From: an uncultured Verrucomicrobia subdivision 3 bacterium
GTDB lineage: Bacteria; Verrucomicrobiota; Verrucomicrobiia; Limisphaerales; UBA11358
Assembly (NCBI GenBank): GCA_903865745.1
Contig: CAIPKV010000070.1
Location: 99,898 to 163,897, forward strand
Direction: 5' to 3'
Length of the DNA stretch: 64,000 nucleotides
Position numbers and translations under genes: made by a program. The notes beneath the pieces were generated by a model. That model saw only the letters and a list, made by a program, of their open reading frames with translations, was not told the origin of the DNA and searched no databases. Of the stretch, positions 48,051 to 61,742 are shown piece by piece (the stretch's first letter is position 1; every line of letters begins with the position of its first letter).

Positions 48051-48899
48051 CTATCCTTTTTTTTCGTGAGCTTCAATCTCCCGGGCAAATTTTTCTGAAA
48101 ATTCACCAGCATGATCTTCGCGGATCACTTCGCTGTCCACCGGCAGCCGATGCAAAATGCTCACGGCCTTGTCGAAGGCCGGACGCAGGGCTTCCTGCTG
48201 TGGTTCGCCGAGCAACAGATACACTTTGAAAGGCTCTTTGGTGTCTTTCACGCTCAGGAGCTGGCCCAGCCATTTATGCGCCTTCTCCCGGATGCTGTCG
48301 GCGGAGCTTAAATCGAAGGACACCGGTTCCAGGCAGTGCCAGACGCCATTTTTCCAGGCGTATTGAAATTCCACCTCATCGTCCTGCACGGAAATTTTCT
48401 TGGACTGGAGATGTTTCAACACGTGGCGGCTTTCCAGGCTGCGACGATATTTCCGCCAAACTTCGTCGTCGCTGCGGCGCTCCTGCTGGGGGCGCTCGTC
48501 GTAACGAGTCACAAGCCGTTCGAAAAGCGTTTCCAAGGTTTGCGAGAGATTCTCGGCCAGCCCGCTGCCGGGCGGAGACCATTGGAGCGAGCTGTCATCC
48601 GGCGGCAACACCGCATGGGCAACTTCCACGACGGAGGCCGGGTGGCCGTTCAACGGCAGTTCCTTCTTCAACTCGTCGCCGATCTCCTCGATGCGGGACT
48701 GGACGAAGCGCATCTGGCTTTTGAAGGCATCGCCATCCATGCCGGGAAACGTTTTGGAGAGGCGGCCGAACGTGCTGCGGCAGATGGCGCTGGCATAGCG
48801 GGCCTCGCGGGAATACAACACCACCCCGACGTTCACGAATTCACCGGTGGTGATGTCGTGCACGTAGCGTAACGCAGAATAGGTGTAGGGTATTTTCAT
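48051..48899 (-). CDS. DUF3037 domain protein
   Basis: N-terminus MKIPYTYSALRYVHDITTGEFVNVGVVLYS matches the DUF3037 signature (Y...RY.PD...GEF.NVGVV). Its ATG overlaps the stop of the upstream kinase gene as ATGA (48896-48899). Confidence 0.75.
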   Translation of the reverse strand: MKIPYTYSALRYVHDITTGEFVNVGVVLYSREARYASAICRSTFGRLSKTFPGMDGDAFKSQMRFVQSRIEEIGDELKKELPLNGHPASVVEVAHAVLPPDDSSLQWSPPGSGLAENLSQTLETLFERLVTRYDERPQQERRSDDEVWRKYRRSLESRHVLKHLQSKKISVQDDEVEFQYAWKNGVWHCLEPVSFDLSSADSIREKAHKWLGQLLSVKDTKEPFKVYLLLGEPQQEALRPAFDKAVSILHRLPVDSEVIREDHAGEFSEKFAREIEAHEKKG

Positions 48900-49711
48900 C
48901 GCAGTGCTTCGCTTAAATTATTTATAGCGGCATCCAGATTTTGTTTCAATGCCCGAACATAGTCCAAAATGCCCGCCAAGTCGCCTTCATTCTGGAGCCA
49001 CTCCGCTGGCAGCGCCACCTGATATTCCTGCAATCTGGCCTCCGTCAACACGTCGAACGCTCCGCCGAAACGCTGAAAGTCGGGAGCGCTCCCGCGCAAT
49101 TCGTCCAGGAAAACATGGCGCAGTTTGTCCGGCTGGCCCTTCGGGAAGCTGATGCCGCCTTTTTCCCAAGGTGCTTTCCAAAACAAGATTCCTTCCGTGC
49201 GGAACGCCAGCTCGTGATCAAAAATCCCGAACTCGCGGCCGTTGGACTGGCAATTGGGATTTGCGACTGTCCGGTCGGGGTTGGCGATGAACGTATCGAA
49301 CGCCAGGATCTCGGCGGCCATCGGCAGCATGGCTTGCGAGATAGGGCGGCCCTTGGCAATGGTGGCAAAACCCGGCGGCAGCTTTTGGGAGCCGAAATTC
49401 CAGCCCAGGCTGGCGGCGGCATTGCGTTTCGCCAGACGGTAGCGGTCATTGGCCTCAGGAATGGTGGCGACGAAATCCGGCTCCACTTGCACCAGGAACG
49501 GTTCGGGCACGGGCAAATCCAGATCGGCCGCCATCAAGGCGGCCACGGCCTCGCGCAGGAGCGAACCAATTCCCGCCTCGCAGCCGCCGGCAAACTTAAC
49601 GACCAATTCCTCCGACCGGCCATCGGCACGCGCACAGGTGACCAAGGACGGCGCGGTTTTCCCAACGCCCATGGGCCGGTGGAATTGATTGGCGGTGACG
49701 GGTGTTAGCAT
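48896..49711 (-). CDS. HipA-like Ser/Thr kinase family protein
   Basis: ...FDTFIANPDRTVANPNCQSNGREFGIFDHELAF... is a HipA_C-type catalytic loop (D.h..N.DR...N.N) plus an (I/F)DH motif. ATG 49711 lies 7-8 nt after GGAG and 10 nt after the stop of the R-M gene. The listed ORF start at 49747 would overlap that gene. Confidence 0.7.
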   Translation of the reverse strand: MLTPVTANQFHRPMGVGKTAPSLVTCARADGRSEELVVKFAGGCEAGIGSLLREAVAALMAADLDLPVPEPFLVQVEPDFVATIPEANDRYRLAKRNAAASLGWNFGSQKLPPGFATIAKGRPISQAMLPMAAEILAFDTFIANPDRTVANPNCQSNGREFGIFDHELAFRTEGILFWKAPWEKGGISFPKGQPDKLRHVFLDELRGSAPDFQRFGGAFDVLTEARLQEYQVALPAEWLQNEGDLAGILDYVRALKQNLDAAINNLSEALR

Positions 49712-49721
49712 CCGTTTCTCC

Positions 49722-52712
49722 TCAGGATGATGGCCGGATGCAATCATCCGTCACCAGTTTTTTTGCATCGGGATAAATGGATGGGACACCGGGAGCCATG
49801 ACGGGTTCGCCCTTCTCAATCTTCGCAACGACTTGCTGGTTCAGGGCGAGGAGTTGGGCGAGCAAATCCTTTTTGGCGTTGAAGCCGTAGGCGGTGAGGA
49901 CGGCGGTGTCCAGCGCGGCGTGGGCGTCCTTCAACGGATTCGCGCCGGGCAATTCGAGGGTGCGATAGAGCGCGCGCAGGCCGCCCTTCAGTTTCGGCAA
50001 CGCCTCGGCGCGCACGCGGCGCAACTCGCGCGCCGCCGCCGCGATGGCGTCAATCTGCTTCACCGTCGCCGTCTGCGGCCACGGGAACGTGTCGAAGACG
50101 GATTCGGCACTGTAACGAAAATCGGATTTCAACTTTCCGCATTTGGTGATGAACCAAAGCCAATGCGTGTGCGATTGCAAAACTCCAAAACTGTAGTCAT
50201 CGGCGAAACCGAACACTTGAATCAGGTTGCTTGGACGAATTGCTGACGAAACAAACATGAAGATCGGGCGCTTCGTCACATAGGCGCAGGCGAGGAACCG
50301 TGGCAGCGGTGTGATAACGGAAAGCATTTCAGGCCGGCCAAAGGAAAGCTGCCACCAACGCGACAGAAATGCTTTGTGGTGCGGGCGCATCTTTCCGTCT
50401 TTATCAATTCCCTCTTTGGCTTTGCGCTCGCGGTCTGGCAACACGTGAGTCTTCACCCATTCAAACGCTCCCGGAAACGTGGCTGCATCAAATTGATTGC
50501 GCTGCCCGAAATCAATGACATGGCGGTCAAGACTCAACTGCGTCAGCGCATCAACACCGTTAAGATATGGGAAGATGACTTCCGCAGACTTCGGGTCTTT
50601 GCTCGTGATTGCCGCGCGTTGATCTTCGCTGAGTAACAAACCTTCGTGTCCAACCATCTGGCCGTTGAAGCAGCGTTGGGGTTCGGTGTTGCAAGCAAGC
50701 GGGCCAGTGACACTCACGTCGGTTTGATCCGAGAGACCAGAACTGATTTCTTCGCACTCGCGGACGTCGAGTTCATAATCCTTGGTTGCCGGGCCACTGC
50801 CGCGCTTGCGCAGTTTCTTTGCAGCGGTAGACGGCTCGACCTTAATCCAGAGCTTGCGGGATTTGGGCAGCAGCGCGGCATCCTGAGTTTTCACCCAGTT
50901 GGCGATCGATACGTGGACTTTGGCTTCGCCCGACCACGGCTGGTTTTCCACGGCTTCCACAATCGTGCCGGTCTTCACCACATAATCGAGTCCGCCCACG
51001 CGGGATTGGTTGTTGCGGATGTTCTGCGTGCCAACGAGTCCGGCGCGTCCGGTCACGGGATCGGCGGCGGTGCAAGCGGGCAGATGGTCGTGGGCTTTGC
51101 GAATCCAATAGACGCAGTAGTCGGCCATGCCCGGAACTTCCGCGTAAGCGCGTCGCAAAGTGTTCACGTAGTCCGGCCCGCGTTCGGGCTTCAGAAGTTT
51201 CGCGCCGAGGAACGGCGGGTTGCCGATGATGACGTCGGCTTTGGGCCATTGCGTCGGAATGTATTCCTGTGTTGTAGCGGCGGTCTGTGACCGCCGTTCT
51301 TCCGCGTCGCCCTCCCGGCGGTCACAGACCGCCGCTACAGGAGAGATCAATGCATCGCAGGCGATGAAATTCTGGTCGAGGTTGTCGAGCGGGAGCGGTT
51401 GTTCGGTGATGTGCAGTTCGTCAATCGCCAGCTTGCGCGCAATCATCATCGTCACCTTGGCGATCTCCACGGCAAAGGGCAGGATGTCGAGACCGTAAAA
51501 GTTTTGCGCGCTCAAATAACTGAAGCGCATCTGACCCTCGCCTTCGCTGGCGTGTTTAGGGAACTCGGTATCAATGCGCTCATAGATGCGCGCCTCCAGC
51601 CGTTTCATCTCGCGGTAGGCGATGTAGAGGAAGTTGCCGGAACCGCAGGCGGGATCTAGCACGCGGAAAGTGTGCATCCGGTCGCGCAGTTCGCGCAGGC
51701 GCTTGAAAGTTTTGGCACCTTCGATCTGTTCCTTCCACGGATCAGTGATCGTCGGCTTGACGATCTTCATGATGTCCGCCGGACTGGTGAAATGCGCGCC
51801 GAATGCGTGACGCTCGTCATCATCCATCGAATGCTGAAAGAGCGTGCCGAACACTTCGGGCTGCACCTTGGACCAGTCGTAAGCCGCCGCCTTGCGAAGC
51901 AGGACGAGTTCGCCGCCCTGGAGTTCCACCCGGGCCGGGTCGCGGAACAGGCCACCATTAAAATAGCGGACATCCTTGTAGCGGCCGCCGGTTTTGGGCG
52001 GATTGGTATTCATGGCCTCGAACAGGCCGCCAATCAAATCGTAACTTTCCGCCGGCGTGCAACATTCCTCCAGGATTTTGGCGACGGTGTATTTCGGCAG
52101 CAGATCAATGTCCTCAGCAAAGAGAGCCACGAGCATTTGCAGGATGAAACGCTGCGCCTCGGGCTGGGGCACGCCGCGCTTCACAAGTTTGCGAAAGCAT
52201 TCGGCCAGACAATCGGCGGCCTCGCGCGTGACGGTTTCACGATCGTTAACAAACGTGGGCTTGGGATTGCCGGGCGCGAGAAATGCGAGCGGTCCCCAGC
52301 GTTGCGCCAAATCTTTCAGCGCGAGCGTGTCCTTGGGCGTGTCGAGGTCGGTGTCGAAATCGTAAATGCGAAACTCATCGAAGTTGCACAGCACGACGTA
52401 GCGCGGGCGATTGGGAACAAGCCGCATCCAATAATCGAAGGCCTGACGGTAGTGCTTTTGCAAATCCGTGCCGCGCTTCTTCATTTCGATCAGCACGACG
52501 GGCTTCCAGACGAGATCGGCAAATGAGGTGCCACCCGTTTCCCCCTTGCTCACACGCATTTCGAGGGTGGCCCCGGCTTCTTTTAGCCCGCCGGCATAGC
52601 CAAAGGCTTGAAAGAGGTGGTCGAGGAAGATTTGTGATTCGCCCTTTTCGTCACCCGTGATGTGCTGCGCGCACCACGCAACGAATTCAGAAAGTTTAGT
52701 CCCGTCCGGCAT
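49722..52712 (-). CDS. Type IIL restriction-modification enzyme, MmeI-like (N-terminal PD-(D/E)xK nuclease fused to gamma-class N6-adenine methyltransferase and a target-recognition region)
   Basis: N-terminal FLDHLFQAFGY...FADLVWKPVVLIEMKKRGTDLQKHYRQAFDYW (D...ExK nuclease). SAM motif VLDPACGSGNFL. Motif IV VIIGNPPFLGAKLL. Start taken at ATG 52712 (MPDGTKLSEF...); the listed ORF runs to 52997 through improbable W/R-rich sequence. Confidence 0.8.
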   Translation of the reverse strand: MPDGTKLSEFVAWCAQHITGDEKGESQIFLDHLFQAFGYAGGLKEAGATLEMRVSKGETGGTSFADLVWKPVVLIEMKKRGTDLQKHYRQAFDYWMRLVPNRPRYVVLCNFDEFRIYDFDTDLDTPKDTLALKDLAQRWGPLAFLAPGNPKPTFVNDRETVTREAADCLAECFRKLVKRGVPQPEAQRFILQMLVALFAEDIDLLPKYTVAKILEECCTPAESYDLIGGLFEAMNTNPPKTGGRYKDVRYFNGGLFRDPARVELQGGELVLLRKAAAYDWSKVQPEVFGTLFQHSMDDDERHAFGAHFTSPADIMKIVKPTITDPWKEQIEGAKTFKRLRELRDRMHTFRVLDPACGSGNFLYIAYREMKRLEARIYERIDTEFPKHASEGEGQMRFSYLSAQNFYGLDILPFAVEIAKVTMMIARKLAIDELHITEQPLPLDNLDQNFIACDALISPVAAVCDRREGDAEERRSQTAATTQEYIPTQWPKADVIIGNPPFLGAKLLKPERGPDYVNTLRRAYAEVPGMADYCVYWIRKAHDHLPACTAADPVTGRAGLVGTQNIRNNQSRVGGLDYVVKTGTIVEAVENQPWSGEAKVHVSIANWVKTQDAALLPKSRKLWIKVEPSTAAKKLRKRGSGPATKDYELDVRECEEISSGLSDQTDVSVTGPLACNTEPQRCFNGQMVGHEGLLLSEDQRAAITSKDPKSAEVIFPYLNGVDALTQLSLDRHVIDFGQRNQFDAATFPGAFEWVKTHVLPDRERKAKEGIDKDGKMRPHHKAFLSRWWQLSFGRPEMLSVITPLPRFLACAYVTKRPIFMFVSSAIRPSNLIQVFGFADDYSFGVLQSHTHWLWFITKCGKLKSDFRYSAESVFDTFPWPQTATVKQIDAIAAAARELRRVRAEALPKLKGGLRALYRTLELPGANPLKDAHAALDTAVLTAYGFNAKKDLLAQLLALNQQVVAKIEKGEPVMAPGVPSIYPDAKKLVTDDCIRPSS
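51273..51339. repeat. 67-bp palindromic (REP/MITE-like) element inside the MmeI-like coding sequence
   Basis: Perfect 24-nt inverted arms, tgtagcggcggtctgtgaccgccg (51273-51296) and cggcggtcacagaccgccgctaca (51316-51339), around a 19-nt spacer. Each arm is itself a small hairpin (cggcggtc-tgt-gaccgccg). Confidence 0.85.
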
Positions 52713-52810
52713 GAATCGGAGATTAACGACAGAGCCGAAAAGTTGCGAGTTTGATTTTGCAGGCTGAAAAAATCGCGGTGGTAATATTTTTTTTAAATAA
52801 GTATCACCAC

Positions 52811-52877
52811 AATCGCCAATGTTCACGGGGCGATTGAATTTCGGCACACGGATTGTGCCAAAAAGCACACGGTTTGT
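52811..52877. promoter_or_regulatory. Operator-like inverted and direct repeats in the divergent region between the R-M operon and the HTH gene
   Basis: aatcgcc-N11-ggcgatt (52811-52835); palindrome ggcacacggattgtgcc (52843-52859); direct half-site repeat gcacacggtttgt (52865-52877). An AT-rich stretch lies just upstream (52775-52800). Confidence 0.4.
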
Positions 52878-52930
52878 AACGCCATAGGGGGTAAAGCGGC
52901 AAAAAGATCGCCGCCGCCACCAAAACCACC

Positions 52931-53242
52931 ATGGCAAAGACAAACATCTCACCGGTCGGGCCGCTTGCGAACACCGCTTCGGTTGTTTCTGCGCCAACGA
53001 CTTCCTCCCAGCCGGCGGCCAATCCCAAAAGCCAAGATGAAATGCTGACCAAGCAGGAAATGGCGGCGCGGTTCAAGGTGTCGGTGCGGACGATTGAAAA
53101 TTGGCTTAACGACGGCTTTCTACCCCGCATCCGCATTACCACCAGGGTGATCCGCTTTTACTGGCCGGAGGTGGTGGCGCATCTGCTCAAAAATTCCAGC
53201 GGGCCGGGGCCGAAGGTCCCTCCAGACGGGCCCAAGGCCTGA
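52931..53242 (+). CDS. Excisionase/MerR-like helix-turn-helix DNA-binding protein
   Basis: MLTKQEMAARFKVSVRTIENWLNDGFLPRIRITTRVIRFYWPEV is a typical Xis/AlpA-type HTH. The true start may be ATG 53042. It is divergent from the R-M operon. Confidence 0.7.
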   Translation: MAKTNISPVGPLANTASVVSAPTTSSQPAANPKSQDEMLTKQEMAARFKVSVRTIENWLNDGFLPRIRITTRVIRFYWPEVVAHLLKNSSGPGPKVPPDGPKA

Positions 53243-53244
53243 AG

Positions 53245-53258
53245 GTGCGTGCCGCACC
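53245..53258. promoter_or_regulatory. Copy 1 of the palindromic junction motif GTGCGNGCCGCACC
   Basis: gtgcgtgccgcacc, 3 nt after the stop of the HTH gene. Confidence 0.4.
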
Positions 53259-53308
53259 GGCCACTGATTTTTAACCGCGAAACACACCAAATACACGAAA
53301 CAAAAAAA

Positions 53309-53947
53309 ATGAAACACATCGTATTCGACATCGAGACCGTGGCGCAGGATCCGACGAAGCTGCTGGCGCTCGCGCCGGAATTCACGGCCGCCGCCAATCT
53401 CAAAGATCCCGATAAGATCGCGGCGAGCATCGCCAAGAAAAAAGCCGACTACCTGGCCGATGCGGCGCTGAATTGGAAGACCGCCGAGGTGGTGTTGATC
53501 GGCGCGGGCGACGATACGGAAATCCAATCGTTCACCGCTGATTCCGAGAAGCAGCTCATCGGTGATTTTCTGAATCTCCTCGGCGATGCGCTGGGCGATG
53601 GCGTGGTGGTGGGCGGGCACAACGTCAAGGCGTTCGATTTGCCGATGCTCGTGAACCGCGCGCGCGTGCACGGCCTGAAAATTCCGCGCAATGTGCTGTC
53701 GTTCTGGCGCGGTCGGCCGCAATGGCACGACAACATTTTCGACACGCTGGAAATTCTCTCCTTCGGGAAATCATTCGATGGCAACGGCGTGGATGACGTG
53801 GCCCGCGTGTTCGGGCTGCCGCCGAAGCTGGGTCACGGCGGTGACTTTCCCCTGCTCTGGCGCGCCGACCGCGACGGGGCCATCGCCTATAACCGGCGGG
53901 ATGTGGAAATAGAAATCGAGATCGCGCGGATTTGTGGGGCGATTTAA
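53309..53947 (+). CDS. DEDD-type 3'-5' exonuclease (PolB-exo-like / RNase H fold), phage recombination module
   Basis: MKHIVFDIETVA (Exo I DxE), VVGGHNVKAFDLPML (Exo II) and a later acidic residue (NIFDTLE or RRD) as the possible Exo III position. Start at ATG 53309 after an A8 tract. Confidence 0.7.
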   Translation: MKHIVFDIETVAQDPTKLLALAPEFTAAANLKDPDKIAASIAKKKADYLADAALNWKTAEVVLIGAGDDTEIQSFTADSEKQLIGDFLNLLGDALGDGVVVGGHNVKAFDLPMLVNRARVHGLKIPRNVLSFWRGRPQWHDNIFDTLEILSFGKSFDGNGVDDVARVFGLPPKLGHGGDFPLLWRADRDGAIAYNRRDVEIEIEIARICGAI

Positions 53948-54051
53948 CCGCGAAACACACGAAACACGCGAAAGAAAAACCATGAACAAATCTGAATCCA
54001 TCACGCACCTGGCGCTCCTTGCGGAGGGCCACCTTTAAACCACCAACAGCT

Positions 54052-54651
54052 ATGAACCGATCCGATTCCATTACACACCTCGCTACTGCGTTGGCTAAAG
54101 CGCAGGCGGAAATGCCGGTGGCGGTGTTTGACGCGACGAATCCGTTTCTCAAATCCAAATACGCCTCACTCGGCGCGGTCATCCACGCGAGCCGGCCGAT
54201 TCTGGCGAAGCATGGGCTGAGTTTGATTCAGTTTCCGATTAGCGGGGGCGCACCTCATCCGGCCTGCGGCCAACTTCTCCCCGGCGCGGAGAAGGATGCC
54301 CCGTCGCCCCGGACATCGCAGCGCGATGTCCCTACCAATGGCGGTCCAGCTGCTGAGTTGGTCGGTGTGGAATCCATCTTGATGCATGAGTCGGGCGAGT
54401 TCGTCGCGGAACGCATCTTGATTCCGCTCACGGAGGAAAAAGGGAAATCTAAAGTGCAATCCGCCGGCAGCACGCTGACGTATCTCCGCCGTTATTCCTG
54501 GGCTTCCATTCTCGGCATGTATTCCGACGAAGATTCTGACGGGGTGGCAACGCCACCTGTCAATGTGCCGCAAGGGGCAAGCTCAACCGGCAAATCCATT
54601 TCTCCAAAACCGGTAGCGGCACTTCCGCCGCCGCCGGCACAACGCAAGTAA
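54052..54651 (+). CDS. ERF-family single-strand annealing recombinase
   Basis: ITHLATALAKAQAEMPVAVFDATNPFLKSKYASLGAVIHASRPILAKHGLSLIQ...ILMHESGEF...GSTLTYLRRYSWASILG are the ERF blocks. It contains an in-frame palindromic repeat insert at ~54247-54345. Confidence 0.8.
   Translation: MNRSDSITHLATALAKAQAEMPVAVFDATNPFLKSKYASLGAVIHASRPILAKHGLSLIQFPISGGAPHPACGQLLPGAEKDAPSPRTSQRDVPTNGGPAAELVGVESILMHESGEFVAERILIPLTEEKGKSKVQSAGSTLTYLRRYSWASILGMYSDEDSDGVATPPVNVPQGASSTGKSISPKPVAALPPPPAQRK
54247..54345. repeat. Palindrome-rich dispersed-repeat-like insert inside erf
   Basis: cttctcc-ccggcgc-ggagaag, plus a perfect 9-bp-stem hairpin ggacatcgc-agc-gcgatgtcc at 54311-54331. It encodes GGAPHPACGQLLPGAEKDAPSPRTSQRDVPT between conserved ERF blocks. 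Confidence 0.6.
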
Positions 54652-54675
54652 ACAACCAACAAACACACAACTGAT

Positions 54676-55425
54676 ATGGAAATACCAAACGAAGGAAAAT
54701 ACGTCTGCAAACTCAATGGCCCACTGGTCATTTACGAGGCATCCACCGGTTCGCTCTGCGCGGCGGTGCCGTGTCAAATGACTGACTCCGGCTTCACGTT
54801 CAAGCACACGATGGTGCTGGTCAAAGCTGACGGAACTATCATGACCAAATCCACCGACACGCTGAAATCTGTGTTCGGCTGGGATGGCGTGGATCCGTTC
54901 TGGCTGATGGATCACTCGCTTGACGACGGCGCGATGCGCGCCGTCGAGTTTGAAATCGTGGGCGGGCCGGAAACGGGCGACAAGGGCGGACAATACTTCA
55001 AATCGCAATGGCTCAATCCGCTGGGCGGCGGATTGAAGACGCCGGAGGCGGCGAATCGGCAGTCGGTGCTGGCGAAGTATGGCAACAAGTTCAAGGCGCT
55101 GGCTGGGGTGGCTAATGGCGGAACATCCAACATTCAACATCCAACATCGAACATCCAATCGGGGAAGGTGCCCGGCAGGATGTCGGCCATAACAGGCAGG
55201 ATGCCGGTTCCACCCGTGCCACCGCCGTTGTTGCCGACGGCCACGATGGAGGAGGCGTGGGCGGCGGTGAATGAAAATAATCCGGGCAAGGATGCCGCCG
55301 TGATTGAAAAAATCTGGTTCGACACGATCGGCAAATTGTTCCCGAACAAATCCAACACGGATCTCAAGGTTCATGAATGGGGTCGGCTCAAGGCGGAGTT
55401 CGAAAAGGATGAACTGCCCATGTAA
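54676..55425 (+). CDS. Phage hypothetical protein (position and N-terminal pattern compatible with an SSB-like/DUF669-type protein)
   Basis: ORF follows erf after 24 nt. The N-terminal beta-rich EGKYVCKLNGPLVIYEAS...FKHTMVLVKADG is suggestive. The C-terminal part carries an in-frame low-complexity repeat (NIQHPTSNIQ...GRMPVPP). The functional call is weak. Confidence 0.5.
   Translation: MEIPNEGKYVCKLNGPLVIYEASTGSLCAAVPCQMTDSGFTFKHTMVLVKADGTIMTKSTDTLKSVFGWDGVDPFWLMDHSLDDGAMRAVEFEIVGGPETGDKGGQYFKSQWLNPLGGGLKTPEAANRQSVLAKYGNKFKALAGVANGGTSNIQHPTSNIQSGKVPGRMSAITGRMPVPPVPPPLLPTATMEEAWAAVNENNPGKDAAVIEKIWFDTIGKLFPNKSNTDLKVHEWGRLKAEFEKDELPM
55122..55215. repeat. Tandem AACATCCAACAT(T/C)(C/G) units followed by duplicated GGCAGGATG motifs, in frame in ORF 54676-55425
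   Basis: aacatccaacattcaacatccaacatcgaacatccaat (55122-55159), then ggcaggatg at ~55174 and ~55194. Confidence 0.7.
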
Positions 55426-55519
55426 GCGGGTAGCACCCGCTGGCCACCAGCCAGACGGGCCACTATCAAAAACCTGAAACGCTGAAATCTGAGACCTGAA
55501 ATCAATTCACCGCGCTGGA

Positions 55520-55542
55520 GTGAGTGCGGGCCGCACCTGCCA
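55520..55542. promoter_or_regulatory. Copy 2 of the junction motif (23-nt version GTGAGTGCGGGCCGCACCTGCCA)
   Basis: 22 of 23 nt match the copy at 57427-57449. The core gtgcgg-g-ccgcac is a 13-bp palindrome. Confidence 0.45.
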
Positions 55543-55580
55543 CCGGCGCCATTTATCAACCACGAAACAAAAAAGTGTTC

Positions 55581-55622
55581 GGCGAGACGCCGACCACGAC
55601 CCGCGAGACGCGGGTGCTACCC
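55581..55622. repeat. Dispersed hairpin element upstream of the ParB-like gene
   Basis: ggcgagacgccgaccacgacccgcgagacgcgggtgctaccc, with a perfect stem acccgcg-aga-cgcgggt at 55599-55615. Confidence 0.6.
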
Positions 55623-55634
55623 AAAATAACAACT

Positions 55635-56492
55635 ATGAAAAACAACGTAACAACTGCTGAATTACTGGGGAAGAATCATCAAGGAGCAGACAAAGTCGCG
55701 CACTACAATTGGAACATTCGGAACGCGCCGGGCGAGTTCCTGATGATTCCGAAACAGGAGCTGGAGGTGGATCACGCCTACCAGCGGAATCAGGTCAATC
55801 CGCGGCGCGTGGACGCGTTGTGCCGCGCCTGGGACTGGATCGCCTGCGGCTGCCTGGTGGTGGCGCTGCGCGATGACAACAAGTGGTATGTGCTGGACGG
55901 CCAGCACCGGAAGCTGGCCGCCGATCAGCGGTCGGATATTAACGAACTGCCGTGCCTGGTGTTTGAGACGACCGGCCGGCGCGAAGAGGCTCTGGGTTTC
56001 CTGGCGATCAATCAGGGGCGGATGGTGGTGGGCTGTCTCGACCGATACAAGGCGCAGTTGCTGGCGGGCGATCCGACGGCGTTTGCGCTGGAAAAGTTGG
56101 TGCGCAGCACGGGGCATCGGTTTGGCCCCAAGCCTTCGGCCCGGACGGTATCTTGCGTGCAGTGTCTTTACACGCTGATGCAGGAGGAGCGGGAACGGTG
56201 CGAACGGCTGTGGCCGCTGCTGGTGGAATTGCATCCGAACGGCCCGATGACGGACGCGGTGATCAAGGGGCTGTGGGTGGTGGACAAGTGGCTGGGCAAA
56301 GAAGGGCGGACGGTGACGACGTCGCCGTATCGGGAAAAGCTCGTGGCGCTGGGCGGCGAAGGGCTCGGGCATGAAATCCGGCGCGAGATCGCGCTGATCG
56401 GGCAAGGTGGCGTGCGGATCAATGGATGCGCCATCGCCAAATACCTCAACAAACAGCGGATGCCCGCGCATTACAAAATCCAACTGAGCTGA
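55635..56492 (+). CDS. ParB-like nuclease (ParB/Srx N-terminal) domain protein
   Basis: ELEVDHAYQRN...RVDALCRAWDWIACGCLVVALRDDNKWYVLDGQHRKLAA matches the ParB N-terminal domain (…DGQHR). Start at ATG 55635; the upstream in-frame sequence is a dispersed hairpin repeat. Confidence 0.7.
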   Translation: MKNNVTTAELLGKNHQGADKVAHYNWNIRNAPGEFLMIPKQELEVDHAYQRNQVNPRRVDALCRAWDWIACGCLVVALRDDNKWYVLDGQHRKLAADQRSDINELPCLVFETTGRREEALGFLAINQGRMVVGCLDRYKAQLLAGDPTAFALEKLVRSTGHRFGPKPSARTVSCVQCLYTLMQEERERCERLWPLLVELHPNGPMTDAVIKGLWVVDKWLGKEGRTVTTSPYREKLVALGGEGLGHEIRREIALIGQGGVRINGCAIAKYLNKQRMPAHYKIQLS

Positions 56493-56575
56493 CCGGCAAG
56501 CTGCCGGTGGCCACCTATAAGAAATTAATTCACCGCGCCAGAGTAACTAAGGCGTATTCACACAAAAAATATAAT

Positions 56576-57430
56576 ATGAAAAATCATACCCAAGTGATGA
56601 GCATCCGGGAGTCACAACGGCTGGTGGAGCTGGAAAAGACCATTGCCAAAGGCAAACAGACCTTTGTGGAGGTGGGGCTGGCGCTGGCGGAAATCCGCGA
56701 TCTGCGGCTTTACAAGCGGGAATACGGCGGATTCGAGGAGTATTGCCGGGAGAAGTGGGGCTGGACGAAGCAGCATGCTTACCGGCTGATTGAGGCGGCT
56801 CCGATCGCAAAGAGTAACTTGCAAGTTACTCTTTCTCAGAACGCCGCCATCGAACTCGCCAAGGCGGAACCGAAGCTTCGCGCCGGGATTGTGCAATCGG
56901 TGGTGGACGAGGGAAAACCGGTGACAGCGGCGGAAATTAAGAAACATCTGCCGCCGGTGCCGGTTCGCCCCACCTCGCCCGTGGTGGCATCACCACCACC
57001 GCCGCCGTCGCGGGTATTGGACGGAACGGGCTGGCCGATTCCGACCCAGCTTATTCCGCTCTGGCTGCGGTCGGATGAAGTCCAGGAAATGCTGACCACG
57101 TTGAGCCGGGTGAAAGGGGCGCTGCGCGCTGCGCAGGATAATCAGGACAAGCTGTTCACCGAGGTCAACTTTTCATCGGCGCTCTCGCAACTGGATCAGG
57201 CGTGGGCGGACATCAAGACGGCGAAGCCATTCGCCGTGTGTCCGACGTGCCAGGGTCAGCTCCCCGACCAGTGCGCCTTGTGCCGCGGTCGCGGGTTGAT
57301 CTCGGAACATCGCTGGAACACCTGTGTGACACGGGAAGACAAGGAATTCCGGTTGCGAGCCGGTGGCAGCGCCACTGGCAACCGGGCCACCGGGGGAAAA
57401 CTAAAACCGGAAACGCTTAAACCAGCGTGA
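56576..57430 (+). CDS. Phage DNA-binding protein: N-terminal KorB/ParB-type HTH-like region plus a C-terminal CxxC...CxxCxGxG zinc ribbon
   Basis: FVEVGLALAEIRDLRLYKREYGGFEEYCREKWGWTKQHAYRLIEAAPI is a common plasmid/phage HTH pattern. The C-terminus has FAVCPTCQGQLPDQCALCRGRGLI. Confidence 0.6.
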   Translation: MKNHTQVMSIRESQRLVELEKTIAKGKQTFVEVGLALAEIRDLRLYKREYGGFEEYCREKWGWTKQHAYRLIEAAPIAKSNLQVTLSQNAAIELAKAEPKLRAGIVQSVVDEGKPVTAAEIKKHLPPVPVRPTSPVVASPPPPPSRVLDGTGWPIPTQLIPLWLRSDEVQEMLTTLSRVKGALRAAQDNQDKLFTEVNFSSALSQLDQAWADIKTAKPFAVCPTCQGQLPDQCALCRGRGLISEHRWNTCVTREDKEFRLRAGGSATGNRATGGKLKPETLKPA

Positions 57431-57449
57431 GTGCGAGCCGCACCTGCCA
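57427..57449. promoter_or_regulatory. Copy 3 of the junction motif, spanning the upstream stop codon and ending 3 nt before the helicase ATG
   Basis: gtgagtgcgagccgcacctgcca. Confidence 0.45.
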
Positions 57450-57452
57450 TAT

Positions 57453-59132
57453 ATGAACCTGCGACCTTATCAATCGGCGGCCAGCAATGCTATTTTTCAA
57501 GAATGGCAGACGGTTAATGCCACGCTGGCGGTCATGGCCACCGGGCTGGGCAAGACAGTCTTGGCCGCCGATCTGGCCCGACGGATGTTTCCCCGCCGCA
57601 CGCTGTTTCTCGCCCATCGCCGCGAACTGATTCATCAGGCGGCGGACAAAATCACGCGCGCCACCGGCCTGCGCTGTGAGATTGAGATGGGCGACTTACG
57701 GGCAGCGGAACATTCGCTGTTCAGTCGCGCGCCGGTCATTGTGTCGAGCATCCAGACACAATGTGCCGGCGGCGACGGCGGCGGGCGCATGGCCAAGTTT
57801 GATCCAGCCCGGTTCGGCTGCGTGATCCTGGACGAGTGTCATCACGCGACGTCGAGCCAATGGCAGCGGGTCATCAACTATTTTCGCACGAATCCCAATT
57901 TAAAAATCTGCGGCATCACGGCCACGCCGGACCGCGCCGATGAGGCGGCGCTGGGACAGGTGTTTCAGTCGGTGGCGTTTGAATACGAAATCCTCGACGG
58001 TATCAAGGATGCTTGGCTTGTTCCCGTGCAGCAGCAACTTGTGCATGTGGCCGGCCTCGACTTCTCCGGCATCCGCACGACGGCCGGCGATTTGAACGGC
58101 GGCGACCTGGCCTCGGTGATGGAAGCCGAGAAAAACATGCAACAGGTGGCGTCGTCGAGCATCGAGATCATCGGGAACAAACGGGCATTGGCATTCACGC
58201 AGTCGGTGAAGCAAGCGGAGATGTTGGCGGAGATTTTCAATCGGAACCGCGCCGGTTCGGCGGCATGGATCTGCGGCAAGACGCCGCACGACAAGCGCAA
58301 GATCATCCTGTCCGATTACGCGCATGGTCATATCCAAATCTTGTGCAACTGCGGCATCACCACCGAAGGTTGGGATGATCCGGCCAATGATATGCAGGGC
58401 GTGCAGGTGTGCATCATGGCCAAGCCGACCAAAAGTAGGAGCCTTTACACGCAGATGGCGGGTCGCGTGATCCGGCCATTGCCGAACACAGTGGACGGGT
58501 TTGATCTGGTCGAAGACCGGAAGTTGTCGATCGCGTCTAGCGCGAAGCCGAGTTGCCTCGTCGTGGATTTTGTCGGCAACAGCGGCCGGCACAAGCTGAT
58601 GACCACCGCCGACATTTTAGGCGGCAAGGTCAGCGACGAGGCCGTCGAAATCGCCGTGCGCAACGCGAAGAAGTCCGGCAAGCCAGTGAACATGACCGAG
58701 GCGCTCGATGAGGCCGAGGAGGAATTGCAGCGGCGCGAGCAGGCGCGGCTCGCCGATGCCGCGCGCCGTGCCCGGCTGGTCGCGAAGGCACGGTTCACGA
58801 CGCAGGAGGTGAACCCGTTTGATGTGCTGGAAATTCAGCCGGTCAAAGCGCGCGGCTGGGACAACGGCCAGCGGCTGTCGGAGAAATGCCGGTCGATGTT
58901 GCAAAAGCATCTGGGTGTGAATCCGGATGCCATTCCCTACGCGCAGGCGATGCAACTGGTGCGCGAGCAGATCCGGCGCTGGGATAACAAGCTGTGCTCG
59001 TTCAAGCAGGCGAAGGTGCTCAAGAAATACGGTTACAGCACCGAGGTCACATTCGAGCAGGCCAGCGCAACGATTGATGCGCTGGCCCGGAATAATTGGC
59101 ACAAGCCCGCACCCGAAACCCAAGCTGCATGA
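57453..59132 (+). CDS. Superfamily 2 DEAD/DEAH-box helicase (phage replication/recombination helicase)
   Basis: LRPYQ, motif I MATGLGKT, motif II ILDECHH, motif III GITATP, and later helicase-C blocks (ILCNCGITTEGWDDP, QMAGRVIRP). Confidence 0.85.
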   Translation: MNLRPYQSAASNAIFQEWQTVNATLAVMATGLGKTVLAADLARRMFPRRTLFLAHRRELIHQAADKITRATGLRCEIEMGDLRAAEHSLFSRAPVIVSSIQTQCAGGDGGGRMAKFDPARFGCVILDECHHATSSQWQRVINYFRTNPNLKICGITATPDRADEAALGQVFQSVAFEYEILDGIKDAWLVPVQQQLVHVAGLDFSGIRTTAGDLNGGDLASVMEAEKNMQQVASSSIEIIGNKRALAFTQSVKQAEMLAEIFNRNRAGSAAWICGKTPHDKRKIILSDYAHGHIQILCNCGITTEGWDDPANDMQGVQVCIMAKPTKSRSLYTQMAGRVIRPLPNTVDGFDLVEDRKLSIASSAKPSCLVVDFVGNSGRHKLMTTADILGGKVSDEAVEIAVRNAKKSGKPVNMTEALDEAEEELQRREQARLADAARRARLVAKARFTTQEVNPFDVLEIQPVKARGWDNGQRLSEKCRSMLQKHLGVNPDAIPYAQAMQLVREQIRRWDNKLCSFKQAKVLKKYGYSTEVTFEQASATIDALARNNWHKPAPETQAA

Positions 59133-59527
59133 ATCTCCCAATTCCAACCCCAACGCTCGCGCGGCTCAATCCGCATCTTTTCGGAATGAAGAATGTAGAA
59201 TGCAGAATGCAGAATTCTGCGGTGAGCCGTGAGGCGGAGCTCCACGAGCAGATTTTTGACGCGTGCCGGCAGCGCGGTTGGATTGCGCTGCACGGCAGCA
59301 TGGCCGAGCGCTCGCACCGCACGCTCGGCGAGCCGGATTTCACGATTCTGGCCGATGGCGGTCGGGTGCTGTTCGTGGAGTGCAAGACCCGGACGGGAAA
59401 ACTTTCGCCCGCGCAAGCCGCGCTGAAATTTCATGCGGAGAAACTCGGGCACACGATCCACGTCGTGCGGTCTTTGGAAGACTTCATTTCCATTACATCA
59501 AACGACGTTCGCCATACATCGACATGA
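59129..59527 (+). CDS. VRR-NUC domain nuclease (PD-(D/E)xK)
   Basis: ...LGEPDFTILADGGRVLFVECKTRTGKLSPAQ... is the VRR-NUC core (D...ExK). ATG 59129 overlaps the helicase stop as ATGA. The N-terminus includes a GAATG-type dispersed repeat. Confidence 0.75.
   Translation: MNLPIPTPTLARLNPHLFGMKNVECRMQNSAVSREAELHEQIFDACRQRGWIALHGSMAERSHRTLGEPDFTILADGGRVLFVECKTRTGKLSPAQAALKFHAEKLGHTIHVVRSLEDFISITSNDVRHTST
59183..59220. repeat. GAATG-type tandem repeat ending in the palindrome GCAGAATTCTGC
   Basis: ggaatgaagaatgtagaatgcagaatgcagaattctgc. It translates in frame as GMKNVECRMQNSA at the VRR-NUC N-terminus. Confidence 0.7.
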
Positions 59528-60336
59528 GTTTCATTCGCGTCACCAAAATGAATCCTTGTCCTATTTGCCGTCAGGCAGGATTACGGGGCATAGATTGGTG
59601 CCGGATTTTTGCTGACGGTTGGATCGAGTGCATGCGCGTCCCGTCGCCCAAGCCGGCGAAGTCCGGCGGCTGGATGTGGCGCTCGCAACGCGAGTTGTCA
59701 CCGGGGCCGAGCCGGGAACCGCGACGGTCCGTCCCACCGCCACCGACCATTAACGCGACGAAGCTGCACCGGGGCTGGTGGGCCAGCACCGATGATGAGA
59801 TGCGTGATGCCTTTGCCCGCGAGCTCGGTTTGTCGGTCGCCGCTTTGAAGTCCGCCGGTGCGGCCTGGGCACCGCTATACGCGTCCTGGGCGTTTCCGAT
59901 GTGCGATGGCTGTGGAAACACCCTCGGCATCCGCCTCCGGGCAAATGACGGGCGCAAGTTCGCCGTGCGCGGCAGTAAGCAGGGCATTTTCATCGCGAAG
60001 GTGCCGCAGCAGCCGACGCTGTTTGTCTGCGAAGGCCCGACCGACACCGCCGCCGCGGTGGAACTCGGATTTTTCGCCGTCGGTCGCCCGAACTGTTGTT
60101 GCGGCGGCACGGACATCAAGATTTTTGTCCGCCGCCACCAGTGTCATCGCGTCGTCGTGGTCTCGGACAACGACAAGCCTGGTCTCGACGGTGCGCGCAA
60201 AGTGGCATTGGAAATCGGTCTGCCGTTTGCTGTGTATGTGCCGCCGGCAAAGGATCTCCGAGAATTCGTCCAACTCGGCGGCACGCGGGCGATGATCGAG
60301 AACACCTTGAAAGGAACGATATGGCGAAATGGATAA
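59524..60336 (+). CDS. Toprim-domain primase-like protein with N-terminal zinc-binding motif
   Basis: MNPCPICRQ...WIEC (Zn motif), then LFVCEGPTDTAAAVELGFFAVG...VVVVSDNDKPGLDGARKVA (Toprim E...DxD). ATG 59524 overlaps the VRR-NUC stop as ATGA. The listed ORF start at 59263 lies inside the previous gene. Confidence 0.75.
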   Translation: MSFIRVTKMNPCPICRQAGLRGIDWCRIFADGWIECMRVPSPKPAKSGGWMWRSQRELSPGPSREPRRSVPPPPTINATKLHRGWWASTDDEMRDAFARELGLSVAALKSAGAAWAPLYASWAFPMCDGCGNTLGIRLRANDGRKFAVRGSKQGIFIAKVPQQPTLFVCEGPTDTAAAVELGFFAVGRPNCCCGGTDIKIFVRRHQCHRVVVVSDNDKPGLDGARKVALEIGLPFAVYVPPAKDLREFVQLGGTRAMIENTLKGTIWRNG

Positions 60337-60764
60337 AGATTGAAACGCACACTCCCGAAAAGGCTGAACTCCGGCAGATTGCCCGGCTGTGCCAATGCAC
60401 GAAAGCGGAGGCGTTTCTGGCGTTCTTCCGCGTGTTCGTCTGGCTGGATGAACAAACCGAGGACGGTCATGTGGATTTTTTCACGCCGGACGATGCCGAT
60501 GAAATCGGCGGGTTGTCCGGCCTGGGCAACGCGCTGGAATCCGTGCGCTGGATCACCTTCAGCCCCGGCGGCGCGGTGGTGGCGAATTGGGAGCGGCACA
60601 ATGGTGAATCGGCCAAAAAGCGGTGTCTGGCCGCCGAACGCATCAAGCGATATCGCAAGAATCACCCGGAATACGGCACCGATGATCCGAAATCTGGAAA
60701 CTACCGTAACGCACAAAGCGTTACCGCAGCGTTACCGGAAGCGTTACCAGATAAGATAAGATAA
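60321..60764 (+). CDS. Phage hypothetical protein (candidate replication initiator/organiser; its 3' end runs into iteron-like repeats)
   Basis: MAKWIKIETHTPEKAELRQIARLCQCTKAEAFLAFFRVFVWLDEQTEDG... starts at ATG 60321 and overlaps the primase 3' end. The last codons are encoded by 3x GCGTTACC and GATAAG repeats. Confidence 0.55.
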   Translation: MAKWIKIETHTPEKAELRQIARLCQCTKAEAFLAFFRVFVWLDEQTEDGHVDFFTPDDADEIGGLSGLGNALESVRWITFSPGGAVVANWERHNGESAKKRCLAAERIKRYRKNHPEYGTDDPKSGNYRNAQSVTAALPEALPDKIR

Positions 60765-60870
60765 GAGGAGATAAGATAAGAATTCTTCCATAGGTAATAA
60801 GGTATAAAGAATACAAGGATATGAGTATAATAGGATATACAGGTATAATAGAAGAGGTAGTAACTCAGAC
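60703..60870. other. Iteron-like repeats plus an AT-rich tract: putative phage origin of replication (or pac/late promoter region)
   Basis: GCGTTACC x3 at 60718, 60729 and 60741 (11-12 bp phasing), plus an inverted near-copy at 60703-60712. GATAAG x5 at 60750-60780. Then GGTATAA/GGATAT-rich AT-rich DNA to ~60870, in an otherwise GC-rich region. Confidence 0.45.
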
Positions 60871-61153
60871 TAGTTATAAGGGACGGCTGCTCCGGTTTCT
60901 TTTTAATCCACCGCCGCTCGCACCGTTGCCGGTGCGGCCAGCGCGCTGCGGCTTTGCTGAACGGCTCGCGAAATATCCGCCTGATCTGGTCACGCACCTC
61001 GGCATGATCCGTTCGAACGCCTACTTCGACGCCGGTTGTCCGCTGGAACTTTGCGACCACGCTGCCGCCCGTGATTTGTGGGCGGTAATTCACGCCGACG
61101 ATCTTGGCGGTGAGCCACCATCAACCAAGGAAGATTATGCCACACCCGTTTGA
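60821..61153 (+). CDS. Possible small hypothetical protein (weak)
   Basis: Only ORF filling the gap between the ori-like tract and terS. Its first ~20 codons lie in the AT-rich repeat tract, and no motif is recognised. Confidence 0.25.
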   Translation: MSIIGYTGIIEEVVTQTSYKGRLLRFLFNPPPLAPLPVRPARCGFAERLAKYPPDLVTHLGMIRSNAYFDAGCPLELCDHAAARDLWAVIHADDLGGEPPSTKEDYATPV

Positions 61154-61742
61154 AAGATTGCCGCGAGAGTCAGAAAAAGCATTTGCCGCGTTCAGCTTGT
61201 ATTTGAGTTTGGGGCCGCAGCGGTCTACCCGCGAGGTAGGGGGAAAATTGGGAAAGAGTGAGGGTTTGATTGAGCGCTGGGCCGCGAAGTTCGACTGGCG
61301 CAGTCGCGTGGCCGCACACACCGCACACCTCGCCATGGTCGAGCGCGAAGCGATCGAGGCGGTGGCGCGTGGCAAGTCGGCGGAATGGTCCAGCCGGGAG
61401 CAGAAATTGCGCGAAACCGAGTGGGCCATGCACGAGCGGGCCATCGCCGCCGCCAAGCGTGGCTTGGATGCCTATATGGCCCGCGAAAAAGTTTACGCGA
61501 ATCTGGCCGACATCGCGCGGATGCTGGAAATCGCGAGCAAGCTGGGGCGGCTGGCGACCGGCCTCGGCGACGGCGAGCGGCGCAACGGCGACGATCTGCC
61601 GGCGATGCGCGTCGAGGTCACCGTTGCGCTGGAAAAAATCTACGGGGTGGCAGCGCCACCGGCCAATGGTTCTGGACTCAATTCGCCGCCAGAGGCGGCG
61701 GCAAAACCGGCCATCGTGGATGTGGAGGAGGTGAAGCCATGA
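61137..61742 (+). CDS. Terminase small subunit (HTH type)
   Basis: MPHPFERLPRESEKAFAAFSLYLSLGPQRSTREVGGKLGKSEGLIERWAAKFDWRSR is the usual TerS HTH N-terminus. AAGGAAG lies upstream of ATG 61137. Its stop overlaps the TerL start as ATGA. Confidence 0.7.
   Translation: MPHPFERLPRESEKAFAAFSLYLSLGPQRSTREVGGKLGKSEGLIERWAAKFDWRSRVAAHTAHLAMVEREAIEAVARGKSAEWSSREQKLRETEWAMHERAIAAAKRGLDAYMAREKVYANLADIARMLEIASKLGRLATGLGDGERRNGDDLPAMRVEVTVALEKIYGVAAPPANGSGLNSPPEAAAKPAIVDVEEVKP

Follow-up and report, generated by a model that had tools for sequence, protein, structure and literature searches.

A perfect palindrome read in frame in an MmeI-type restriction-modification gene of an uncultured verrucomicrobium: a probable REPIN-like insertion in a variable loop

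How does a perfect palindrome come to lie in frame inside a conserved restriction-modification gene, shortly ahead of a catalytic motif, and what does it mean for the enzyme? The question is raised by a 64,000-nucleotide stretch of DNA (hereafter the window) from an uncultured Verrucomicrobia subdivision 3 bacterium (GenBank assembly GCA_903865745.1, contig CAIPKV010000070.1, positions 99,898 to 163,897), in which a 67-bp palindrome is translated as part of an MmeI-type enzyme. We propose, with a probability of roughly 0.8, that this palindrome is a REPIN-like dimer of a widespread family of GTAG-tagged repetitive extragenic palindromes (REPs), which was inserted into the MmeI-type gene and is tolerated in a variable loop of its product. 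The features on which the argument turns are the following (window coordinates):

49722-52712, minus strand: host gene, an intact MmeI-type Type IIL/IIG restriction-modification enzyme of 996 aa, stop codon included
51348-51356, minus strand: D453-A-L455 motif, just upstream of the insertion, aligned with NAL in 'NANALQ' of MmeI
51210-51221, minus strand: N498-P-P-F501, catalytic motif IV of the N6-adenine methyltransferase domain
51273-51339, no strand: 67-bp REPIN-like REP dimer, in which two GTAG-tagged REPs stand tail-to-tail in inverted orientation, GTAG heads outward, around a 19-nt spacer
51273-51296, plus strand: REP unit 1, T + GTAG (51274-51277) + stem CGGCGGTC, loop TGT, stem GACCGCCG
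51297-51315, no strand: spacer of 19 nt, TTCTTCCGCGTCGCCCTCC
51316-51339, minus strand: REP unit 2, unit 1 in reverse complement, whose GTAG head occupies 51335-51338 of the minus strand
51267-51338, minus strand: 72-nt (24-codon) segment V459-Q482, missing from homologues according to DNA alignment with loci L124 and L125 and to protein alignments

From 51273 to 51339 the window reads TGTAGCGGCGGTCTGTGACCGCCG - TTCTTCCGCGTCGCCCTCC - CGGCGGTCACAGACCGCCGCTACA. The initial annotation had described a perfect nested palindrome with 24-nt arms, a 19-nt spacer and a hairpin in each arm, and a repeat search found this accurate: the two arms are 100% complementary (24/24) with 19 nt between them, and within each an 8-bp stem (CGGCGGTC/GACCGCCG) closes a 3-nt loop. 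Both arms carry the hallmark of a REP, namely an unpaired 5' GTAG followed by a short GC-rich stem-loop. The arm had no match in any shuffled version of the window, and the palindrome is the sole inverted repeat of such quality in its 64 kb. Its position in frame inside an MmeI-like gene, upstream of NPPF, was likewise borne out by open reading frame (ORF) and domain searches. The minus-strand ORF around the element spans 49722-52997, and the gene most likely starts at the methionine at 52712, since the 996-aa protein P0001 is 100% identical from there.

The extra segment is missing from 113 of the 119 closest homologues (67-89% identity), where the loop reads roughly DALLTPEGLPAQWPKADVIIGNPPF. 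DNA alignment with the two nearest insertion-free homologues (P0003, encoded at L124, and P0002, encoded at L125) gave a single clean 72-nt gap between well-conserved flanks, equal to the 67-nt palindrome plus about 5 nt, with borders uncertain by a few bases. Two border alignments were equally good (TCTCC plus palindrome, or GTAG...CTAC plus AACACAG), and no target duplication was readable from the L124/L125 alignment. These protein and DNA comparisons identify the segment as an insertion, as had been supposed for a stretch of about 25 residues from the sequence of the window. The window protein shares its 90% cluster with a single further protein (P0241), which has the insert as well, so that the cluster offered no insertion-free allele. 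Over 5-23 kb that include the element, contigs obtained from several samples with several assemblers (L121, L122 and L123) match the window exactly, and the allele is therefore not an assembly artefact; it was found unchanged in at least four samples.

The affiliation of the element was examined with its 23-mer head, GTAGCGGCGGTCNNNGACCGCCG, used as the query in a scan of one genome per species. Among the matches listed, this head occurred in more than 120 stretches, mostly from Verrucomicrobiota of all classes and with many from Acidobacteriota; a few came from Pirellulales, Kiritimatiellia, Lentisphaerae or Nitrospirae, or from metagenome-assembled genomes (MAGs) with doubtful labels. The typical unit consists of cTGTAGCGGCGGTC-TAT-GACCGCCG, a spacer and CGGCG(G/C)TC-ATA-GA(C/G)CGCCGCTACAg, with the GTAG heads pointing outward. 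Inverted doublets made up 51 of the 147 elements in 120 listed loci, the other 96 being singles, and spacers, most often 21-24 nt long, varied from genome to genome. In the set of 213 perfect GTAG hairpins, the stem was CGGCGGTC in 159, CGGCGCTC in 30, CGCCGGTC in 5 and of other types in the rest, all of them fully paired; judged by this pairing, the stem variants are compensatory changes. The commonest loops were TAT (102) and TGT (45), with TGC, TCT and TCC also present, and the dinucleotide 5' of GTAG was CT in 148/213 and TT in 45/213. This pattern of CT and GTAG agrees with the biochemistry of E. coli TnpA-REP, for which the 5' GTAG is required for hairpin binding and single-stranded DNA is cleaved at a CT dinucleotide (PMC3479197). 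Several copies occur per related MAG, as in DATKST01 (L001, L017, L115 and L126). Together, the GTAG hairpins, the inverted doublets and the occurrence of the 23-mer head in more than 120 listed stretches place the window element among GTAG-tagged REP dimers, in agreement with the initial annotation, which had likened the peptide to a translated REP-type repeat.

The REP head was also present in 35 IMG/VR viral or proviral contigs (L133-L167), with 5-6 copies in some (L137, L147). A contig retrieved from JGI metagenomes with the arm end plus spacer (L132) was rejected as a sibling of the element, since it lacks a REP and any homology to the window and matched by chance.

In related genomes the repeats flank a gene for a REP-associated tyrosine transposase (RAYT). 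An Opitutia MAG (L039) contains a 152-aa ORF with an HUH motif (DHLHLFV), a C-terminal Y...NPV motif and a match to Pfam Y1_Tnp, located exactly between inverted REP copies at 3235-3257(+) and 3744-3766(-). The same layout, with two perfect REP copies, was found in a Verrucomicrobiota MAG (L127), where the gene bears the NCBI name REP-associated tyrosine transposase. In a Terriglobia MAG (L126), which is also the source of the REP loci L001, L017 and L115, a RAYT lies among several REPs with the compensatory stem variant GTAGCGCCGGTC...GACCGGCG, and a partial RAYT stands beside a REP in L075. The Y1_Tnp genes directly flanked by REPs in L039, L127 and L126 encode roughly 152-162 aa. There were 2469 RAYT homologues at E <= 1e-10, many of them annotated as RayT and several bearing the name RayT or REP-associated tyrosine transposase, and five further RAYT ORF calls extend into the flanking REP, reading RRSQTAAT, GGHRPPLQ, AVIDRRY or VAAVCDRR. 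Gene order in these relatives thus links REP and RAYT, and the source genome presumably encodes such a transposase. In the Terriglobia MAG, the RAYT and its flanking REPs (L126 1501-1962, DATKST010000009) are situated between cas1 and cas2 of a Cas9 (type II) CRISPR locus.

These observations bear on whether the segment is mobile DNA at all, rather than an ancestral or host-evolved loop that is palindromic by chance, or an assembly chimera. A non-mobile origin would fit the uniqueness of the arm, of which no second copy was found in the 64-kb window. It is refuted by the identical 23-mer in the more than 120 listed stretches of other genomes, where it flanks RAYT genes, by the absence of the segment from 113/119 homologues, by the DNA alignment, and by identical assembly with different pipelines in several samples, so that its probability is close to nil.

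The frame in which the palindrome is read is constrained. The head can be read through in a single frame (GTA GCG GCG GTC TxT GAC CGC CG, translated VAAV(Y/C)DRR), and the other two run into TAG or TGA. For the second arm, two or three frames are free of stops; the common ATA loop gives a stop in the RRS*TAAT frame, and the ACA loop of the window gives RRSQTAAT without a stop. Within long open frames (at least 100 aa on each side) we found 8/47 doublets and 9/75 singles, whereas some 50% of random positions drawn from those loci lie in such frames; the family is depleted from genes 3-4 fold, yet it is not excluded from them. All nine candidate in-frame doublets enter as VAA[VL][YC][DE]RR and exit as RRSQTAAT, GGHRPPL[QH] or AVADRRY. 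Seven of the nine lie in proteins with Pfam domains: leucyl-tRNA synthetase (LeuRS), class I/II aminotransferase, polyketide synthase (in the DH-KR linker), BadF/BcrA ATPase, M20 peptidase, a TPR protein and an LRR protein. Four of these copies, all from other MAGs, are located as follows:

L009 5475-5541: in leucyl-tRNA synthetase
L072 6048-6118: in class I/II aminotransferase
L098 5011-5078: in a polyketide synthase linker
L008 7538-7591: in a BadF/BcrA-type ATPase

When compared with solved structures, the alignments of the LeuRS and the aminotransferase break exactly at the element, with about 21 and about 26 extra residues, respectively. In addition, a second MmeI-like gene (P0094, L168 2537-2611, JGI 3300042991), 70% identical to that of the window, carries the same REP family in frame as a perfect dimer at a different site, after FPWPQ (CTGTAGCGGCGGTCTATGACCGCCG - 24 nt - CGGCGGTCATAGACCGCCGCTACAG, translated VAAVYDRRNSAHDPANGGHRPPLQ). 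These alignments and translations establish that copies of the family recur in frame in proteins.

With regard to the host protein, the Pfam profiles MmeI_N, MmeI_hel, MmeI_Mtase and MmeI_TRD scored over their cut-offs and MmeI_C reached 22.6 bits vs a cut-off of 27; PADLOC assigned the protein to REase_MTase_IIG (1105 bits). Its sole solved relative is MmeI (PDB 5HR4), the best match by both sequence and fold, with which it shares the five-domain architecture and the catalytic motifs at about 21% identity. In one chain, the protein joins an N-terminal endonuclease, a helical spacer, a gamma-class N6A methyltransferase that includes NPPF, a target recognition domain (TRD) and a C-terminal domain. 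In the alignment, the family-invariant nuclease residues D66, E76 and K78 as well as DPACGSGNF and NPPF were all kept. Relative to MmeI, the host protein has 24 additional residues between the equivalents of 'NANALQ' and 'CCFILGNPPF', and profile alignment places the insert between 'NANALQ' and 'IDWNDVLEAKKCCFILGNPPF'. This site is the connection from the strand ending in DAL to the strand carrying NPPF, the insert starting 3 residues past the former motif and 16 residues ahead of the latter.

An alignment of 120 homologues showed only two internal indel hot spots, one being this DAL-NPPF loop and the other the region after FPWPQ, at about residue 880-886. Three homologues contain other palindromic inserts in the DAL-NPPF loop:

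L129 501-3515, P0114: GTAG...CTAC dimer with stem GGGACGG
L131 501-3464, P0046: GTGG-tagged 14-nt inverted repeat
L130 501-3500, P0059: 10-nt inverted repeat

The inserted peptide has a high content of D, E and R. In an AlphaFold2 model built with 43 homologues (mean pLDDT, i.e., predicted local distance difference test, of 77.6), residues 461-480 fell below 50 and the flanking strands (456-458, 484-486 and 494-497) were retained; the best structural match of the model was MmeI 5HR4 (E 1e-32, TM 0.65 on target). Alignment and model point to a permissive DAL-NPPF loop that would act as a survival filter for insertions. The suggestion of an insertion tolerated in a surface loop, made before these comparisons, thus stands as far as tolerance is concerned, with recurrent inserts, a low-pLDDT excursion and a kept fold; as to exposure, what the model gave was pLDDT and secondary structure. 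The second hot spot (window ~50055-50075, minus strand) holds diverse inserts of 10-55 aa in more than 20 homologues and none in the window protein, several of these inserts looking like translated repeats (e.g., SRRKEALTS...DQSLVTS and YKDSAPDGAA).

The proximity to DAL and NPPF is also one of the grounds for suspecting that a recent insertion crippled or abolished the methyltransferase and/or the endonuclease, leaving a young pseudogene or hypomorph that has not yet gathered stops. The 24/24 complementarity of the arms would leave little time since insertion, and the nearest insertion-free homologue of the host protein is just 89% identical. The ratio of nonsynonymous to synonymous substitution rates (dN/dS) was 0.10 between the window gene and P0002 and 0.15 between the window gene and P0003, similar to the 0.13 obtained between P0002 and P0003, which are both insertion-free. 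By this measure the host gene is under long-term purifying selection, although a whole-branch value is blind to the period after insertion and dN/dS neither dates that event nor proves later activity. Conversely, the exactly kept frame and the exclusive use of the stop-free frame and loop variant match the outcome expected from selection for a complete product, inserts of 10-30 aa occur in the same loop of at least six otherwise intact homologues, the same REP family is tolerated in the essential LeuRS, and the allele is unchanged in at least four samples. We therefore consider inactivation unlikely; nothing indicates the inactivating insertion that the initial annotation had entertained, since ORF and catalytic motifs are intact and dN/dS is as in insertion-free homologues.

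A different role, as a switch or modulator, could be exerted by excision or slippage (phase variation), by cruciform or recombination rearrangement, or by down-tuning through an mRNA hairpin (RNase III cleavage, ribosome pausing). In folding predictions the mRNA strand of the palindrome forms a perfect 24-bp duplex of -58.7 kcal/mol. Furthermore, a contig from another sample (L128, ENA ERZ18628969, allele P0241) differs from the window at only two positions in 22,991 nt, both in arm 1 and equivalent to 51322 and 51325: a G to T change in the loop and an A to T change in the stem, which turn CD into FV in the protein. The chance of both substitutions falling within 67 nt is ~1e-5, and the palindrome would therefore be a local hot spot either of mutation or of error. 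Sequence-specific Illumina errors at inverted repeats have been reported, and both changes may have arisen as errors where a hairpin forms. Neither an excised nor an inverted variant was present in five independent assemblies, all of which contain the insert, so that nothing indicates the excision, inversion or phase switch proposed earlier. No promoter- or terminator-like site was found at the element, and Rfam gave only sub-threshold matches resembling miRNA precursors, as expected of any long hairpin. Moreover, the same family occurs in unrelated housekeeping genes, where a switch would be senseless, and such a role seems to us very improbable.

Our preferred explanation, a REPIN-like dimer tolerated in a variable loop, can be put as a sequence of events. 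A family widespread in Verrucomicrobiota and Acidobacteriota would be mobilised by its cognate RayT-type HUH/Y1 transposase, whose gene has these repeats on its flanks. On the model of E. coli TnpA-REP and IS200/IS605, this RAYT may have placed one copy into the MmeI-type coding sequence through single-stranded DNA. Survival of that copy could be ascribed to three circumstances. The 72-nt length of the insert preserves the frame. The sole stop-free entry frame (GTA GCG GCG GTC ..., VAAVCDRR) is used, and with the TGT/ACA loop variant the exit frame is spared the TAG to which the commoner TAT/ATA would lead. Finally, landing in the variable DAL-NPPF loop of the methyltransferase domain would most likely have allowed the charged 24-aa excursion to be accommodated, and we infer that the insert is neutral for enzyme function.

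Several observations weigh against this explanation. The right-hand junction, GCTACAacacag, deviates from the family consensus GCTACAG, which leaves it ambiguous what precisely was inserted and whether a target was duplicated. The window spacer, TTCTTCCGCGTCGCCCTCC, had no match in any other copy retrieved. No RAYT was found in the 64-kb window or in the 35 IMG/VR contigs, either by phmmer with E. coli YafM as the query or by a profile from 120 RAYT homologues; with neither a RAYT nor a second copy in the window, the presence and activity of the family in the source organism are unproven. The insert starts only 3 residues past the DAL motif, which, to judge from related gamma-class methyltransferases, is presumably close to the cofactor pocket. 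Lastly, the perfect arms suggest a recent event, after which an inactivating insertion might not yet show decay.

It could also be argued that the 23-nt head, common to more than 100 species of several phyla among the listed matches, belongs to a family adapted to persist inside genes, with its single open entry frame and a charged, disordered peptide tolerated in loops, and that its repeated arrival in MmeI-like genes goes beyond a filter of tolerance and could reflect targeting or a selected effect on restriction-modification, such as expression dampened by the 24-bp mRNA hairpin or an altered enzyme. MmeI-like genes have been reached repeatedly, with two independent hits by this family and at least three other palindromic insertions in the DAL-NPPF loop. 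Overall, we hold this view to be decidedly unlikely.

The surroundings of the host gene comprise further mobile and defence-related functions. Directly downstream (48051-49711, minus strand), two genes with the Pfam domains HipA_2 and DUF3037 were assigned by PADLOC to the candidate defence pair PDC-M66A/B (E 5e-71 and 6e-93), and by these annotations the pair and the MmeI-like gene form a small putative defence island. A plus-strand block at ~52931-63139, adjoining the MmeI-like gene, encodes an excisionase-like HTH_17 protein, DNA_pol_B_exo2, an ERF recombinase, a DEAD/SNF2 helicase and a large terminase, and is probably a prophage; the locus of the insertion-free homologue P0003 (L124) is without such a phage-like neighbourhood. 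Two more GTAG-tagged perfect hairpins, at 55620 and 54335 (minus strand), lie inside this block and have unrelated stems (GTAGCACCCGCGTCTCGCGGGT and GTAGGGACATCGCGCTGCGATGTCC); they were rejected as family members, two being unconvincing vs 0.38 expected and no family being visible. Farther away, four giant minus-strand ORFs of 1591-1985 aa (20905-42933), next to an ORF annotated with PATR repeats, share internal segments that are 75-85% identical (e.g., 24537-25512, 29398-30312 and 34604-35803).

The findings explain an odd peptide in a conserved restriction-modification enzyme, and they provide VAAV[Y/C]DRR...RRSQTAAT or ...GGHRPPLQ as a diagnostic signature of translated REP dimers in proteins of Verrucomicrobiota and Acidobacteriota. 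For engineering, they reveal two permissive loops of MmeI-type enzymes (DAL-NPPF and after FPWPQ), with natural inserts of 10-55 residues, that may be useful in this much-engineered family. As regards mobile elements, the known tolerance of Verrucomicrobia for many intragenic REPs is extended to a REP/RAYT family of many uncultured lineages.

In-frame palindromes are also known from another group. The Rickettsia palindromic elements (RPEs), which Ogata and colleagues are said to have described in 2000, reportedly lie in frame in many protein genes, essential ones included, and add surface peptides. They are about 100-150 bp long, AT-rich, restricted to Rickettsia and without an associated RAYT. 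The window element is not an RPE, as it measures 67 bp, is GC-rich and GTAG-tagged and belongs to Verrucomicrobiota/Acidobacteriota; the two are alike only in their in-frame insertion behaviour. RPEs are mentioned in a survey of GTAG-tagged REPs, where RPE-4 and RPE-6 are assigned to the CGTC class (PMC3733652).

That survey (Di Nocera, De Gregorio & Rocco 2013, BMC Genomics 14:522, PMC3733652) offers the closest precedent. According to it, GTAG-tagged REP families flank RAYT genes in many phyla, the Planctomycetes-Verrucomicrobia-Chlamydiae (PVC) group included; a minority of REPs are intragenic, among them GTAG REPs of the verrucomicrobium Opitutus terrae, and dimers that contribute 20-30 aa account for over half of these inserts. 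The hosts it names include an N-6 DNA methylase (Oter_3011), DNA ligase, uvrA, dnaE2 and tRNA synthetases. The window family resembles these O. terrae REPs, as portrayed there, in its phylum, its 5' GTAG with a GC-rich stem of 6-9 bp, its repeat-flanked RAYT genes and its inverted dimers, which lie in frame in known proteins and read V-A-x-V... (GTA GCx). In contrast to the O. terrae GTAG-17 repeat (VAGVADPGPG...), with whose reported stem it was compared, the window family has a different stem and reads VAAVYDRR..., and MAG data place it in many species of several phyla. Intragenic GTAG REP dimers, one in an N-6 DNA methylase included, had therefore already been described from Verrucomicrobiota, and the window case adds one example without being a new kind of event or implying a new mechanism. 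REPIN-RAYT systems (Nunvar 2010; Bertels & Rainey 2011, PMC3116915; Messing 2012, PMC3479197) share with it two inverted REPs that form a long hairpin, a GTAG head with CT 5' of it, compensatory stem variants and, in related genomes, a short REP-flanked Y1/HUH transposase gene, apparently one per genome. Classical REPINs, however, are extragenic and lineage-specific in sequence, whereas the window copy is intragenic, and in its family spacers vary between copies and the 23-nt head is found across phyla.

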